A stretch of DNA of 64,000 nucleotides from Escherichia coli. GTDB taxonomy: Bacteria; Pseudomonadota; Gammaproteobacteria; Enterobacterales; Enterobacteriaceae. The stretch is taken from NCBI RefSeq assembly GCF_044324785.1, contig NZ_CP172127.1. One strand, given 5' to 3'. Shown here piece by piece: positions 20,601-26,600 of this stretch. Position numbers: made by a program. The first letter of the stretch is position 1; every line of letters starts with the position of its first letter.

Positions 20601-23600
20601 TCACCGTAACTGGCTGGCACTGCTGCTGTTCGTATTATGCTCAGTAAACAGCTGGCCGTTGCGGATGGTTAAAGGAACTGTTGTGGGGACAACTGACACA
20701 TTGCGTGAAATGCAACATTATAAACAACTGAGTCAGCACGGGGCTGACAACTGGAAAATCCTGCCGGGAACACCGTTATATGACACAATTGTTATTGTCA
20801 CTGGTGAGAGTGTGCGCAGGGATTATATGTCGGTATATGGCTATCCCGTGCCAACCACGCCGTGGCTGAATACAGCTCCCGGTTTATTTATTGACGGCTA
20901 TACATCGGCAGCAGCCAGTACCGTACCTTCCCTGAGCCGGACACTGATTTATGACTATGAGCAGAACCCTGACTCCGGCAACAACGTGGTGGCGCTGGCA
21001 GCAAAAGCAGGATACAGCACATGGTGGATATCCAATCAGGGAAAGCTGGGGGAGCATGATACACGCATCTCTGTTATTGCTTCTGATGCGGAGCATACCG
21101 TTTTCCTCAAGAAAGGCAGCTTTGCTTCCCGTAAAACGGATGACATGTTGTTGTTACAGGAAACAGAACGTGCACTGGCGGATAAATCCTCTCCGAAGGT
21201 GATTTTTCTGCACATGATGGGGTCTCATCCGAACCCGTGTGACCGGCTTCACTCCTGGCCGAATCATTACCTGGAGCAGTATCCCCGAAAGGTTGCCTGT
21301 TACCTCGCCAGCATCAGTAAACTGGATAACTTTCTCTGTCAGCTTGATGGTATCCTTCGCCGGCATTCCCGTCATTTCGCCATGCTTTACTTTTCTGACC
21401 ATGGTCTGTCGGTCAGCGACAGTGCTAATCCTGTTCATCATGATGGCCATATACAAGGAGGCTACAGCGTTCCCCTGATTATTACCGCCAGTGACATCAC
21501 GTCTCATCAGTCCGTCAGCAGAAAAATCAGTGCCCGTCATTTCGCAGGTATTTTTCAGTGGCTGACCGGCATTCGTACTGAAAATATACCGCCATTCAAT
21601 CCGCTGACAGACGAAGATAATGAACCCATTATGGTTTTTAACGGAGACAAGAATGTACCGACAGACAGCCTTGAGTCACAGCCTCTGATTCTTCCGGGCA
21701 AGGGAAAATAAGCGTAATGTTCATCACCAGGTTATGTACGATGAGTTTTCCACTGTTTATAGCAATTATCTTGCTAATAACCAGACAGGAGTAACCAGAC
21801 CAACCGAAAACACCGGGGAGGTGATTACCCGCTGGCAGAGGAAATCCGGTTTTTTTTGATGTCAGCCATAACGTGTTTGACAATAAAGCATTATGAAAGG
21901 GTGTTAATGAGTCCATGGGATAATTCATAAAAATAATTTACTGTGTTGTCCTTTTCAAAAGAAATATTCAGAAGATAACCCCTGGCTGACAACCAGGGAA
22001 AGGGGACATTAACAGTATTATTATTGGTGGATAAATTATTACTTGTGTGCAGGATACACTAATGCAATATCTACTGATACTGTATGCCAGAATGTTTCCT
22101 GCCTGCTGCTGAAAACGGCAATATCCAGGGCCAGACATATTCACCATTCATATTTCTGCATTTCTGTACAATTTTCTCAGAAAGCGTCTCATCAATTCTT
22201 TCACGCAACTTCTCCTGCTGTCTTAAAATACTTTCGTATATTTCGAAATCATCTTCCTGCATCAGCATTTCGGCGCATTTAATGATTTCTGCCCGTTCAT
22301 GCAGCACAGAGGAATGGTTATAGAGCCAGTTTACAAACAGCAATGCTTCCGGATATTGTCCCCATAATGGTGAGTATGTTGTATAATAATCTTCGGCAGT
22401 ATCCGGCCCTGCAGAATAGTTATGCCATACAGCAAGAGGAAATGGATGCAGATTTCCGCACAGCATTTCCGCGATGTAAGTATTTGCCGCAAATCCGCGA
22501 CGAAATGCAGTTGCAGCTTTTACCAGTTCCCCATTAAGAAAATGCAGAAGACCAAGTTCATACCAGTAAGGTGAAAATTCATCAGCATGTTTTTTCAGTA
22601 CACTGAAGGCTCGCTCATGATCACCTGTTCGTAACAGTTCTGAACCCAACAACCAGCGGGCACCCTGATTATCTTCAGGATTGTATGCCAGTATTTTATC
22701 AGTAAGCATAACCGCATCCTGATGACGCTGTAAGTGCACATTTGCGAGAATTGCTGCATAAAGCGCGCGCAGATAAGGCCGGTTTTCGGGATGCATCCAG
22801 ATGATTTCACCACTGAAACTTTCCGGGATGAGACGATTACCGGCCGCCAGTCCTTTAAGCGCGGCGTTCAGAGCCTTACGCGGGGCATTCTGCTCCAGAA
22901 ATGCATATGCCAGATGAGCGTGTATATCAATAAAGTCAGGCTCCCGTTGAGCAAGATGCCTGAGTTTGTTGATGTAACTCGTCTCGCTGATTTCATCAGT
23001 GTCGTATGCATCAAGCACTTCTTCAAACTCCCCCAGTAATGGGCCAAACCAGGTATCCGGAAATACGAAATAACCCTTGTTATCGTGCACTTCAAAGCAT
23101 AATCTATCGTTCATTTTCTGAGCCTGTAAAACATGTGGTGATATAGTCTGAGAGCATAAAAGTTGAGATTCTGTGTATCAAGTCCTGTCTTGGCACCGAA
23201 TGAATATTGCTTACGAAGCCCCTTCATGCTTTCCTTGAGAACAATAATTTTATCTTTATGTGAATCTCATTTTTTATAATGATGTCAGATGATTGAAATG
23301 CTAAATTATATCTGAATCAACTTTTCCTTTGCTAAAGGTATCGAAATAACTGCAAGATTGTATTTTGTAATTGCCAATTTAAAAATGTCAATTTGTTTTT
23401 AATTATGTTTTTGTAATAAGTTTGAAGACACAAAAAAATAATATAATAACAAAAATCCTCCAGCCTTGTAGGCCAGAGGATAAAATACTTAATTGAGGAA
23501 AACATCAGGGAAAAGTATTTCTGACTTAACTTTCCCGGCTGGAGAGTGAATCAATGTAATCAGCGTACCATTGCATCATTTCACGGCGGCCATCGAGATA

Positions 23601-26600
23601 CAGGGCATGATTATAGGTACCCCTGATGGAATTTTTATCCACATGAGCTAACTGCATTTCAATCCAGGCGGAGTTAAAGCCTTGTTCATGCAGAATTGTA
23701 CTCATGGTGTGTCTGAAACCGTGCCCTGTGAGTCTTCCCTTATATCCAAGTAATTCAATTACTTGGTTAATGCTTTCCTTACTAATTGGTTTGCGGGGAT
23801 CATTTCTACCGATAAAGACTAGGGGATGATGTTTTGAGATTGGTTCAAGCTGCTTAAATAGCATAATAACCTGCTCAGAGAGCGGCACAATATGAGGTCG
23901 CTTCATCTTCATTACTTCTGCCGGGATCTCCCACAATTTTGTCTCAAAATCGATATCTTCCCAGCGTGCAAAACGCAGTTCTTGTGTTCGTACGCCGGTT
24001 AACATAATGATCTGAGTAGCTGTCTTAGTGATTATACTTCCGGTATAACCCGCCAGATCGTTGAGGAAGTGGGGAAGTTCATTAGCAGTAAGAAAGGGAA
24101 AATGTACTTTTTTCGGTGTAGCTAAAGCACTGGCAAGATCGGGGGCTGGGTTATAGTCTGCCCGGCCAGTAACAATTGCATAGCGGAACACCTCACCACA
24201 GCGCTGGCGGACCTTGCGCATTTTCTCCAGAGCTCCACGTTTTTCCATTTTACGCAGTGCTTCCAGTAACTCCATTGGTTTGATTTCGGCAATAGGGCGC
24301 TTGCCAATGTAGGGAAAAATGTCTTTTTCAAAGGTATCAATGATTTCATCACGATAGCGTAATGACCACCGATCGGCTTTTGACTGGTGCCATTCGCGAG
24401 CAATAGCCTCGAACGTATTTTTCAGACTTATTTGCTGCGCGATTTTTTCTTCCTTTTTTGCCTCCCCTGGATCGCCTCCAGCAGCGAGGAGTTTCCTGGC
24501 TTCACTGCGTTTCTCGCGAGCATCGGCTAGCGTTACATCGGGGTATACGCCAATAGAAAGCATCTTTTCTTTACCAGCAAAGCGGTACTTCATGCGCCAG
24601 TATTTAGAACCATTAGTGTTAATCAGTAGATACATACCGCCGCCATCAGCAAGCTTATAGGGTTTGTCTTTGGGTTTTGCGGTTTTCACTTTGATATCGG
24701 TTAATGCCATGACATCCTCCGGCTTTTGATGAATTCATGTTCCTGAGGGGGATTTCTGCCAGTAACTAACCTGATACCCCCAATACACCCCTTGTATAAC
24801 AAAGATGTTGTTAAAAGCCGTTGTTATGTATCACATTTTTCCTATTATGGGGGTGCTTGTATTTCAATAGGAAATAACACCCCCTAAAGTACCCCCAAAA
24901 GAAACTTGATACGGGGTGAAGTAGGTTGACCTCAGGATACAAATAAATACTGATATACAAGGGATTAGAAGAGATTTATTGACATTGGGAGAGTTCAGAA
25001 GAGGTAAACTGGCGGAAGATCACAGGAGTCGAACCTGCCCGGGACCGCTGGCGGCCCCAACTGGATTTGAAGTCCAGCCGCCTCACCGGAGACGACGATC
25101 TTCCGCGCCTCGATTGCTACATGGAGGCGGGGCGCATTATAGCTACTTCCTTGAGTTTCTACATCCCCCAGATCAGTTTTTTCCGCCTAATACACGCAGC
25201 GTATTATCACGAAAGCATTATAGTTCATATAAAACCCATATTTTACAATGATATATGAGCGGAATTAACGCTACCACGATCACATAAAACAAGAATCATA
25301 AATTAATAACCAGATATCGGAATATTCGCTCTCACAGGGATGGTTTACAAAATGCGTTATCGGTCTCAGCACCCCTATAGCATCAAGGAAAAGCAGATGA
25401 AGAGTGAAGTGTTGTCCGTTAAAGAGAAAATTGGTTATGGCATGGGAGACGCCGCCAGCCACATTATTTTCGATAACGTAATGTTATATATGATGTTCTT
25501 TTATACCGATATTTTTGGCATACCTGCCGGATTTGTCGGAACCATGTTTTTGGTCGCTCGTGCACTGGATGCGATTTCCGATCCTTGCATGGGGTTGTTG
25601 GCCGATCGAACGCGCTCTCGCTGGGGTAAATTTCGTCCGTGGGTACTGTTTGGCGCACTTCCATTCGGGATCGTCTGTGTACTGGCCTATAGCACGCCAG
25701 ATCTCAGTATGAACGGCAAAATGATCTATGCAGCAATTACTTACACCCTACTTACCTTACTTTATACCGTCGTCAATATCCCTTACTGCGCATTGGGTGG
25801 TGTAATCACCAATGACCCGACTCAGCGTATCTCGCTGCAATCCTGGCGTTTTGTGCTGGCGACCGCGGGAGGCATGCTTTCTACTGTTCTGATGATGCCA
25901 CTGGTTAATTTAATTGGCGGTGATAATAAACCACTCGGTTTCCAGGGCGGTATCGCGGTCCTTTCCGTGGTGGCATTTATGATGCTGGCATTTTGTTTCT
26001 TCACCACTAAAGAACGCGTTGAAGCACCACCTACAACGACGTCTATGCGGGAAGATTTACGTGATATCTGGCAAAACGACCAGTGGCGGATTGTCGGTTT
26101 ACTAACCATTTTCAATATCCTGGCGGTGTGCGTACGCGGTGGAGCGATGATGTATTACGTCACATGGATTTTGGGTACGCCGGAAGTGTTTGTCGCTTTT
26201 CTCACCACTTATTGCGTGGGTAACCTGATTGGTTCCGCACTGGCAAAACCGCTGACCGACTGGAAATGTAAAGTCACTATCTTCTGGTGGACGAACGCCC
26301 TGCTGGCAGTGATTAGCCTCGCGATGTTCTTTGTTCCTATGCAGGCCAGCATCACTATGTTTGTCTTCATCTTCGTGATTGGTGTGTTGCATCAACTGGT
26401 GACACCTATCCAGTGGGTAATGATGTCCGATACCGTCGACTACGGCGAGTGGTGCAATGGTAAACGCCTGACCGGGATCAGTTTTGCTGGCACGCTGTTT
26501 GTGCTCAAACTGGGGTTGGCCTTCGGCGGCGCTCTTATCGGCTGGATGCTGGCTTATGGCGGATATGATGCGGCAGAAAAAGCGCAGAACAGCGCCACGA

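Follow-up and report, generated by a model that had tools for sequence, protein, structure and literature searches.

A selC-anchored genomic island of Escherichia coli ST38 and the putative G5 arm-type sites beside its P4-type integrase

The short stretch of DNA between the selenocysteine tRNA gene and an adjoining integrase gene in Escherichia coli carries several runs of G and C, and the locus raises the questions of what these motifs serve and where the DNA that entered beside the tRNA gene comes to an end. Both were addressed in a window of 64,000 nucleotides, using the RefSeq annotation of the E. coli ST38 strain ES1, which is 100% identical to the window. ARAGORN called a single tRNA in the window, tRNA-SeC with anticodon tca, and the features that define the locus around it are as follows.

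25010..25104, minus strand: selC (tRNA-Sec, anticodon UCA), a complete gene and the integration target (ARAGORN; RefSeq tRNA-Sec in ES1)
25010..25033, minus strand: attL core identity segment, the final 24 nt of selC, TTCGACTCCTGTGATCTTCCGCCA (comparison with the far-end repeat)
24993..25004, minus strand: conserved box CCTCTTCTGAAC, 5 nt past the tRNA end (K-12, far-end and int-side sequences aligned)
23526..24710, minus strand: int, a 394-aa P4-type tyrosine integrase, WP_001218900.1 (open reading frame, domains and homology)
1..23525, no strand assigned: island cargo, the proximal 23.5 kb of 41.1 kb (ES1 RefSeq annotation, rarity and mosaic GC)

The region is very probably the attL end of a genomic island, 41.1 kb long in the source genome, that entered the 3' end of selC through a tyrosine integrase of the P4 family. 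The initial annotation had placed an island at selC with its far end beyond the window, and both points were borne out. The selC site of K-12 is empty, the gene directly adjoining the backbone that resumes 41 kb away in ES1, and a search for a direct repeat of the selC 3' end recovered an imperfect copy of 23 nt, with one T missing, at 42208-42230 of the source-genome stretch (L002), 16.1 kb to the left of window base 1. This repeat precedes setC, the K-12 backbone starts right after it, and the limits of the island are selC on one side and TTCGACTCCTGTGATC-TCCGCCA on the other. Between the far-end repeat and selC, 17 nt of uninterrupted identity are left; all 24 nt of the far-end repeat are kept in other strains and only 16 nt in strain 536. 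A 24-bp selC repeat has been reported for other selC islands too (PMC6174562).

Comparison of selC loci found the same int beside selC, with variable cargo, in 1508 of 5426 complete E. coli genomes, and only 4 of the 5426 hold at least 80% of window positions 1-24999. This rarity, a GC content ranging from 0.38 to 0.65 and the presence of IS elements agree with the earlier description of the left flank as accessory and mosaic. The cargo includes genes for a TPR protein, a phosphoethanolamine transferase, an outer membrane protein, PhoX, an autotransporter fragment and a porin, together with xylA, an MFS transporter, GH43 and an HNH endonuclease; the ES1 annotation lists IS3, IS66 and ISEc8 elements, gene fragments and pseudogenes in the island, in which an AlpA-family gene is also present. 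Three features by which tRNA-anchored islands are recognised were found here, namely a site that is occupied or empty among genomes, a tRNA repeat at the far boundary, and mosaic composition together with mobility genes. The selC island is an ordinary member of a long-recognised class of mobile islands, and selC islands with P4- or CP4-like integrases have been described since the 1990s.

At the position of the empty K-12 site equivalent to CCTCTTCTGAAC stands a similar box, CCTCTCCTGAC, and cTCTnCTGAa-like sequences occur at the SeC and ArgCCT sites of relatives and, in looser form, at other tRNAs. We regard the CCTCTTCTGAAC box as a candidate core-type (C'/B') integrase half-site.

Both selC and int lie on the minus strand with a spacer of 299 bp (24711..25009) between them, close to the 300 bp first estimated, and the same arrangement, an integrase gene beside the 3' end of a tRNA gene in equal orientation, was seen in 64 of 80 related loci. 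The int gene has a GGAGG ribosome-binding site at 24716-24720; no sigma-70-like promoter for it was found in the 299-bp spacer. Three domains were identified in the protein, Arm-DNA-bind_3 (DUF4102, PF13356, residues 3-88, E 2.8e-30), Phage_int_M (100-194) and Phage_integrase (206-370), and its N-terminus matches the solved arm-binding domains 3ju0 (E 1e-30) and 3jtz ('CP4-like integrase', E 4.5e-23). It aligns at full length with P4 Int (45% identity, 405 aligned positions, E 2e-115), and an inspection of the catalytic set found none of R241, K268, H330, R333, H356 and Y366 mutated; across 63 aligned relatives each of these is invariant, save H330 at 62/63. The P4-type assignment made initially was therefore upheld, and by homology int belongs to the P4-type tyrosine integrases (IntSXT subgroup, P4 cluster), with DUF4102 described as the subgroup's mark (Smyshlyaev et al. 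2021; PMC8138268). Identity in the C-domain of the integrases follows the tRNA target. Where an upstream tRNA was called, relatives more than 64% identical to int were all at tRNA-Sec (26/26, about 14 genera), and the targets of less similar integrases were Arg, Ser, Thr, Phe, Gly and Asn tRNAs.

The spacer, at a GC content of 40%, contains seven runs of four or more G or C, and the copies of ACACCCC (24785 and 24877) and GGGGTG (24850 and 24913) lie where they had first been noticed. In 5000 mononucleotide shuffles the mean was 0.69 runs and the maximum 5, none reaching seven, and a count of seven or more was seen in only 0.16% of the 299-bp windows taken from the whole 64 kb. Two of the five ACACCCC copies in the window sit in the spacer, which makes up 0.47% of the sequence. 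The tandem arrangement GGGG[GT]N5-8GGGG is confined to the spacer within the 64-kb window, and in the 50-kb source-genome stretch it was found besides only at the far end of the island. The candidate sites are listed below.

24878..24897, minus strand: putative proximal P' arm pair TGGGGGTAcTTTAGGGGGTG, two direct sites in a 12-bp register (conservation, P4 equivalence)
24848..24855, plus strand: putative inverted arm-type site TGGGGGTG, which is CACCCCCA on the int strand (7/8 positions invariant in 11 orthologous spacers)
24775..24792, minus strand: putative distal P' arm pair AGGGGTGtATTGGGGGTA, two direct sites 10 bp apart (long-spacer subgroup)
24746..24752, plus strand: doubtful, weak copy in inverted orientation, AGGGGGA, lying 35 nt upstream of where int starts (poorly conserved)
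24905..24930, minus strand: three phased boxes with 10-bp spacing, TCAAC (+81), TCACC (+91) and TCAAG (+101), counted from the tRNA end
L002 42135-42151, source genome: putative P arm tandem pair with G-run starts at 42135 and 42147 (far-end sequence)

The proximal P' pair starts 112-113 nt after the tRNA end, the conserved inverted copy at 24848-24855 lies 137 nt from the int ATG, and the P arm pair lies 57 nt before the far-end repeat. The distal P' pair is restricted to a subgroup with long spacers (about 295-299 bp) and is absent where spacers are 160-245 bp. Most of the repeat copies are conserved, but, as a correction to the initial annotation, two of the seven runs are not: the GGGGTG at 24913 is not conserved in relatives, and the run at 24746-24752 has a mean conservation of 0.77 against a spacer average of 0.85 and is deleted in strain 536. 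The GGGGTG at 24913 overlaps the second phased box (TCACC). At the equivalent place most relatives carry TC(A/T)A(C/T) boxes, three or four in number, whichever tRNA is used, and we consider the phased TCAAC-like boxes candidate sites for a recombination directionality factor.

The conservation of the G-runs extends well beyond selC. G5T shows no variation among 11 diverged orthologous spacers or among 7 diverged far ends, and the tandem G5 pair is kept in 44/44 G-class sequences (P4 and the present integrase counted) spanning eight tRNA targets. In short-spacer relatives and in P4, inverted C4-5 copies follow the pair and a C5 abuts the int ATG. In the GenBank entry for P4, repeats of 12 bp are marked as 'attP arm sequence repeats', GTGGGGGCACAA/AAGGGGGCATAT in the P arm and ATTGGGGGCATA/ATTGGGGGCATC in the P' arm, with a further inverted repeat copy at the int ATG; the repeats are placed at 3965-3942 and 4174-4151, of which 3965-3942 is equivalent to the proximal P' pair. 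The earlier suggestion of arm-type sites thus gained support, since the P4 repeats match those of the island in sequence, register and distance to the core, and the repeats are conserved and covary solely with the arm-binding domain. We conclude that the GGGGT motifs beside int are putative integrase arm-type sites in a P4-like layout and that, as judged from the alignments, G5 arm repeats conserved across genera and tRNA targets are a family-wide feature.

The relatives fall into two repeat classes, G5 in 44 sequences versus TGTATAG/CTATACA in 16. Nine protein columns separate these classes fully, all of them within residues 6-85 and none in the other ~300 residues. Among the G5 sequences, the base that follows G5 varies with a single column only, residue 50, where M/L goes with T (16 sequences) and R/K with C (27 sequences), a correlation seen in at least three lineages, these counts being drawn from related sequences with fewer independent events than sequences. 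We put forward, tentatively and as a possibility rather than an expectation, that the arm-binding domain of the P4 family has a simple readable specificity code, composed of a nine-residue switch and a T/C choice at residue 50. The signature at residues 6, 10, 19, 27, 37, 40, 41, 48 and 85 may switch between G5 and TGTATAG sites, and residue 50 alone (Met/Leu versus Arg/Lys) may select T or C after G5. If the code were true, sequence would predict which P4-type islands in one genome share arms and cross-talk and which are insulated. The covariation offers a cheap, testable prediction of how these integrases discriminate between their own arms and the arms of islands residing alongside.

Given the established anatomy, P4 homology, conservation and protein-DNA covariation, a mechanism can be envisaged in which the island would bring a copy of the final 24 nt of selC, so that the tRNA gene stays complete after integration and a partial copy comes to lie at attR, the far end. 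Int would act on the 24-nt identity segment through its catalytic and core-binding domains, while its N-terminal arm-binding domain (residues 3-88) would dock on the GGGGGT repeats of the P' arm, 112-235 nt inside the island beside int, and of the P arm, where the pair is located 57-73 nt ahead of the far-end repeat. Once excised, the circle would have its core flanked by the two arms, with Int bridging arm and core sites and the DNA presumably bent where the P arm has an IHF-like site. This site, AATCAAAACATTA (L002 42186), is the single match to the IHF consensus WATCAANNNNTTR; its consensus letters are conserved and its N positions variable, and it is AT-rich and not a G-run. Excision would probably be assisted by the AlpA-family protein, likely via the three phased TCAAC-like boxes between the core and the arm pair, and the copies near the int start may allow Int autorepression.

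Other readings of the G-runs were weighed against their role as arm sites. The initial annotation had named IHF as an alternative, and the AT-rich spacer does make G-runs stand out. However, the IHF consensus had no match in the 299-bp spacer, so that the G-runs were rejected as IHF sites, and with the observed run count never reached on shuffling and the motifs conserved across genera and tRNA targets, IHF binding or compositional chance is scarcely credible. An excision factor of the AlpA/Vis family could bind the G-runs instead of Int, the island having an AlpA-family gene and phased direct repeats being what directionality factors typically bind (PMC7498355). This is very unlikely, as the motif class and the base after G5 both covary with the arm-binding domain of Int, the P4 record places the repeats in the att arms, and the separate phased TCAAC-like boxes, with their 10-bp spacing, are available for a directionality factor. 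The chief role of the G-runs might also be that of operators, with int transcription controlled by Int or by another protein acting on them. Multiple copies lie between selC and the int start, the C5 copy abuts the ATG in short-spacer relatives as in P4, and the IntS arm sites of KplE1 overlap the intS promoter and mediate repression (PMC2951348). Yet an invariant tandem pair also occurs at the opposite island end, separated from int by 41 kb, a placement that makes sense only if the ends meet in attP; moreover, the geometry fits P4 recombination arms, and regulatory and arm roles are not mutually exclusive. A predominantly operator function thus seems improbable.

With the repeats taken as putative arm-type sites, it could still be that a P4-type system integrated the island, that excision has since been lost, and that the arm sites are vestigial in ES1. 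The attR repeat is one T short of selC where other strains hold the full 24 nt, the cargo has IS3 and IS66 insertions, numerous truncated genes and a frameshifted ProQ/FinO gene, and a promoter-like site for int was not found in the spacer. On the other hand, Int is full length with every catalytic residue kept, the sites of both arms are intact, an AlpA-family gene is present, and 17 nt of unbroken identity persist, whereas strain 536, whose selC island reportedly deletes at low frequency, has just 16 nt. We consider such a fixed remnant rather unlikely, though a serious possibility. The ES1 copy may nevertheless show poor or no excision, because of the 1-nt deletion at its far end and its many IS elements and pseudogenes.

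Beyond annotation the significance of the locus is slight. The analysis provides the exact limits of the ST38 island, 41.1 kb from selC to the degenerate 23-nt repeat before setC, and a base-level map of the attL control region, and the family-wide G5 arm repeats could help the automatic definition of island ends.

Among known systems, P4 has an integrase with the identical three-domain plan and also has G5-core 12-bp tandem pairs on both arms, with inverted copies toward int, and an AlpA/Vis-type small protein, as does the ES1 island. The distance from the core to the P' pair is 112 nt in the ES1 island and 113 nt in P4, and that from the P pair to the core 57 nt and 54 nt, respectively. In contrast, the target is selC in the ES1 island and leuX in P4, and the base after G5 is T with Met50 in the former and C with Arg in the latter. 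The P' arm of the ES1 island (299 bp) is longer than that of P4, with an additional distal pair, and the island carries 41 kb of metabolic, surface and IS genes but no P4 replication or helper-exploitation genes.

The selC islands PAI I536, SHI-2, LEE, the Tia island, GI-selC17584/1 and AGI-3 have CP4/P4-like integrases and share the insertion point, and their terminal repeat is the same as that of the ES1 island, 24 bp for selC (PMC6174562; PMC7545054); no description of their arm repeats was found in the literature searched. The selC-adjacent integrase of UPEC 536 is 95% identical to that of the ES1 island, and a far-end module (DUF4942, CbtA/YeeU toxin-antitoxin, antirestriction, YagK/YfjJ) is common to the ES1 island, CFT073 and 536. 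Unlike other selC islands, that of ES1 is without hemolysin, aerobactin, type III secretion or fos genes and instead carries xylA, GH43, an MFS transporter, a porin, PhoX and a phosphoethanolamine transferase. The IntS proteins of KplE1/CPS-53 and of Sf6/HK620-type phages share ~49% identity with int over the full length, and in KplE1 the integrase gene likewise adjoins its tRNA, with an overlap between the arm sites and the control region of int (PMC2951348). The tRNA target of these systems, argW, differs from the selC of the ES1 island, however, and the KplE1 arm sites have a conserved TAAA motif (PMC2951348) in place of the G5 of the ES1 island.

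The only tRNA gene called by ARAGORN in the window is selC, which encodes tRNA-Sec (anticodon UCA). It is separated by a spacer of 299 bp (24711-25009) from the integrase gene int, an open reading frame with a GGAGG ribosome-binding site ahead of its start. The two genes and the opposite limit of the island are listed below, where L002 is the stretch of the source genome, that of E. coli ES1, which holds the far end.

23526-24710, minus strand: int, 394 codons
25010-25104, minus strand: selC, tRNA-Sec gene
L002 42208-42230, outside the window: far-end repeat of the 3' terminus of selC, confirmed by alignment with K-12

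Positions 1-24999 match ES1, and also a strain with the label ST38, at 100% identity. The initial annotation regarded the DNA left of selC as accessory and mosaic, and this was borne out: at least 80% of it was found in only 4 of 5426 complete genomes, its GC content ranges from 0.38 to 0.65, and it carries IS3, IS66 and ISEc8 elements together with many gene fragments. The DNA right of selC is core genome, with yicJ and yicI followed by recG, spoT and the waa genes. A search allowing up to 3 mismatches did not find the selC 3' end a second time in the window, and the island does end outside it, as had been proposed. In the ES1 chromosome the insert extends 16.1 kb beyond the window start to TTCGACTCCTGTGATC-TCCGCCA, which corresponds to the final 24 nt of selC with one T missing, and the sequence beyond this direct repeat is the K-12 backbone that directly adjoins selC in K-12. 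The position of the repeat, with backbone resuming there, thus defines an island of 41.1 kb between selC and setC. A gapless search of the ES1 genome missed the repeat owing to the 1-nt deletion; it was located by reading the sequence before setC and confirmed by K-12 alignment. Among seven aligned strains it is polymorphic, being intact (24 nt) in two, lacking 1 nt in three, including ES1, and lacking 4 nt in CFT073 and 536. The 16.1-kb extension holds an AlpA-family gene, YagK/YfjJ, antirestriction genes and a CbtA/YeeU toxin-antitoxin pair, a module typical of CP4-type islands.

The cargo includes a 500-aa phosphoethanolamine transferase (20209-21711, plus strand) whose matches to CptA, EptA and MCR models are weak, every one scoring far below the curated cut-off. 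An HNH endonuclease (390-1028) and the start of a 'phosphorothioated DNA-binding restriction endonuclease' gene (1-210) may form a defence module. AGI-3, a sugar-metabolism island at selC, was considered as a named equivalent but not equated with this island, its known cargo being the fos locus as against the xylA/GH43 set here. Outside the island, between yicI and yicH, a low-GC cluster (29402-36345; GC 0.40-0.43 at 29-32 kb) encodes a BglG-type antiterminator, fructose-type PTS components, two aldolases, a ROK protein and a lyxose/mannose isomerase, and looks like a second accessory segment, one lacking a tRNA gene or integrase.

The assignment of a P4-type integrase to selC was likewise upheld. 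Int carries the P4-type domain set, Arm-DNA-bind_3 (residues 3-88), Phage_int_M (100-194) and Phage_integrase (206-370). A full-length comparison with P4 Int gives 45% identity (E 2e-115), and solved structures of domains from CP4-like and CPS-53 integrases match the N-terminal and central domains of the protein. Uropathogenic strain 536 has an integrase next to selC that is 95% identical to it. Mutation of catalytic residues, which the initial annotation had named as grounds against its reading, was not found, as R241, K268, H330, R333, H356 and Y366 are all kept and vary hardly at all among 63 aligned relatives. The same enterobacterial integrase was met at 100%, 93% and 87% identity in metagenome bins labelled Collinsella (L034), Wohlfahrtiimonas (L010) and Ignatzschineria (L013), of which selC was called only on the Collinsella contig; these contigs are probably mis-binned DNA.

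The spacer had been said to carry repeated GGGGTG and CACCCC motifs, candidate arm-type integrase or IHF sites. ACACCCC occurs at 24785 and 24877, and GGGGTG at 24850 and 24913. The spacer, at 40% GC, contains seven G/C runs of at least four, a number reached by none of 5000 shuffles (mean 0.69) and by only 0.16% of 299-bp windows across the 64 kb. The copies are as follows, with + giving nucleotides after the end of selC towards int.

+93, spacer: inverted copy
+113 and +125, spacer: direct pair, TGGGGGTAcTTTAGGGGGTG
+155, spacer: inverted copy, CACCCCCA
+218 and +228, spacer: second direct pair, AGGGGTGtATTGGGGGTA
+258, spacer: inverted copy, TCCCCCT
57-73 nt before the far-end repeat, outside the window: far-arm direct pair, TTTGGGGGTTCTTATGGGGGTTAC

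No further copies of the tandem-pair pattern were found in the window or in a 50-kb genome stretch. Local alignment of the distal and proximal pairs, made to see whether one duplicates the other, gave a weak score with many gaps and so no clear duplication.

These motifs were compared with the attachment site of phage P4, in whose GenBank record six repeats of 12 bp carry the label 'attP arm sequence repeats'. Five were read out: the int-side pair is ATTGGGGGCATA/ATTGGGGGCATC, the pair across the core from it is GTGGGGGCACAA/AAGGGGGCATAT, and gtgCCCCCAAATG stands inverted at the start of int; the sixth is annotated inside P4 int. Repeat core, 12-bp register and orientation all agree between P4 and the island. 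The core lies 113 nt from the int-side pair in P4 and 112 nt in the island, and the other pair lies 54 nt from the core in P4 and 57 nt in the island. Judged by sequence, the spacer and far-arm motifs are the island version of the P4 arm-type sites. Literature searches on the arm sites of selC and CP4-type islands returned no specific description.

Conservation was assessed in 80 related loci, which came from a scan limited to a single genome for each species. All 26 relatives with more than 64% identity and a called upstream tRNA lie at tRNA-Sec, in about 14 genera including Photorhabdus, Yersinia, Serratia, Providencia, Proteus, Xenorhabdus and Citrobacter, while less similar integrases use Arg-CCT, Arg-UCU, Ser-UGA, Thr-CGU, Phe, Gly-CCC or Asn tRNAs; the target is tracked by identity of the integrase C-terminal domain. 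The tandem pair with its run of five G (G5) is kept across these targets, in each case roughly 112 nt beyond the end of the tRNA gene. In 11 orthologous spacers of 290-299 bp, five sites are conserved at 0.90-0.99 against a spacer mean of 0.85, whereas the copies at +93 and +258 score 0.75-0.77; the former reads CAACCT in most relatives and the latter is deleted in strain 536. The far-end pair is invariant in seven strains despite differing flanks. The arm-site reading of the motifs therefore stands on the P4 match, conservation and the covariation described below, but not for these two of the seven copies. In Kluyvera georgiana (L018) two tRNA-Sec genes were called upstream of the integrase (1765-1857 and 2244-2338, 387 nt apart), which may represent a duplicated or remnant attachment site.

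Sixteen relatives, spanning four tRNA targets, lack G5 repeats; in their place stand TGTATAG/CTATACA repeats, a putative second class of arm repeats. These relatives include L028, L030, L031, L057, L062, L067, L073 and the tRNA-Gly(CCC) loci (L052-L082). These 16 are fully split from 44 G5-type sequences by nine alignment columns (residues 6, 10, 19, 27, 37, 40, 41, 48 and 85), although the sequences are kin and the counts given here and for residue 50 below exceed the number of independent events. All nine columns fall in the arm-binding domain and none in the other ~300 residues, a distribution that, on sequence comparison, would be hard to explain unless this domain reads the repeats. Among the G5-type sequences, 16 have T directly after G5 and 27 have C, and over the whole protein only residue 50 (codon at about 24561-24563 of the window) splits them, with Met/Leu accompanying T and Arg/Lys accompanying C. 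P4 has Arg in this column and GGGGGC sites. As the T-type loci L029 and L077 are nearer in their N-terminal domains to C-type relatives than to the remaining T-type ones, at least three lineages acquired the association. The covariation between arm domain and arm site suggests a testable recognition code.

Other elements were found around the arm sites.

24905-24930, spacer: boxes TCAAC, TCACC and TCAAG at +81, +91 and +101, 10 bp (one helical turn) apart, between core and arm pair
L002 42186-42198, far arm: IHF consensus match, AATCAAAACATTA, 9 nt before the far-end repeat

Most relatives, whatever their tRNA, have three or four TC(A/T)A(C/T) boxes at the same position. Directionality-factor sites are typically phased direct repeats (PMC7498355), and we infer that the boxes could be sites of the island AlpA-family protein, a putative excision factor of the AlpA/Vis type. 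The second box shares sequence with the GGGGTG at 24913, which probably belongs to this box and not to the arm sites. The suggestion of IHF sites among the motifs found no support, since the spacer has no IHF consensus match; that in the far arm keeps its consensus letters among seven strains bar one change in 536, and its N positions vary. The box CCTCTTCTGAAC, 5 nt past the tRNA end, has a similar counterpart in the empty K-12 site, where CCTCTCCTGAC occupies the corresponding place, and may be a core-type half-site. Scans found no sigma-70-like promoter on the int strand in the spacer or far arm (L002 41950-42260), and no terminator after selC. Read-through from a tRNA promoter has been reported for ICEKp1 (PMC13023037), and by analogy int could possibly be transcribed by read-through from selC.

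The best-supported account is the P4 form of the heterobivalent integrase model, the classical version of which is summarised in PMC2951348. The C-terminal domains of Int would cut and rejoin inside the 24-nt identity while its N-terminal domains would hold G5T arm sites on both arms, and bending proteins, joined for excision by the AlpA/Vis-type factor, would shape the complex. Beyond the observed anatomy, homology, conservation and covariation, we infer arm-site binding, bending, directionality and autoregulation. That this copy may still move is favoured by the intact Int, arms and AlpA-family gene and by 17 nt of unbroken identity, against 16 nt in 536; the damaged far-end repeat and decayed cargo argue against it. 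In strain F1 E4 (L090) the far-end repeat is followed directly by an int-side-arm-like sequence, CTTCCTCTTCTGAACTCTCCC, and not by backbone, an arrangement whose sequence suggests two islands in tandem at selC. Since tandem islands give the same junction, the attP junction (both arms around the core, as in the excised circle) in public contigs is a poor proxy for excision.

For other selC islands the 24-bp selC repeat and CP4-type integrases have already been described (PMC6174562; PMC7545054). The present island is a further member of a long-known class, that of selC islands with P4/CP4-type integrases and P4-type arm repeats.
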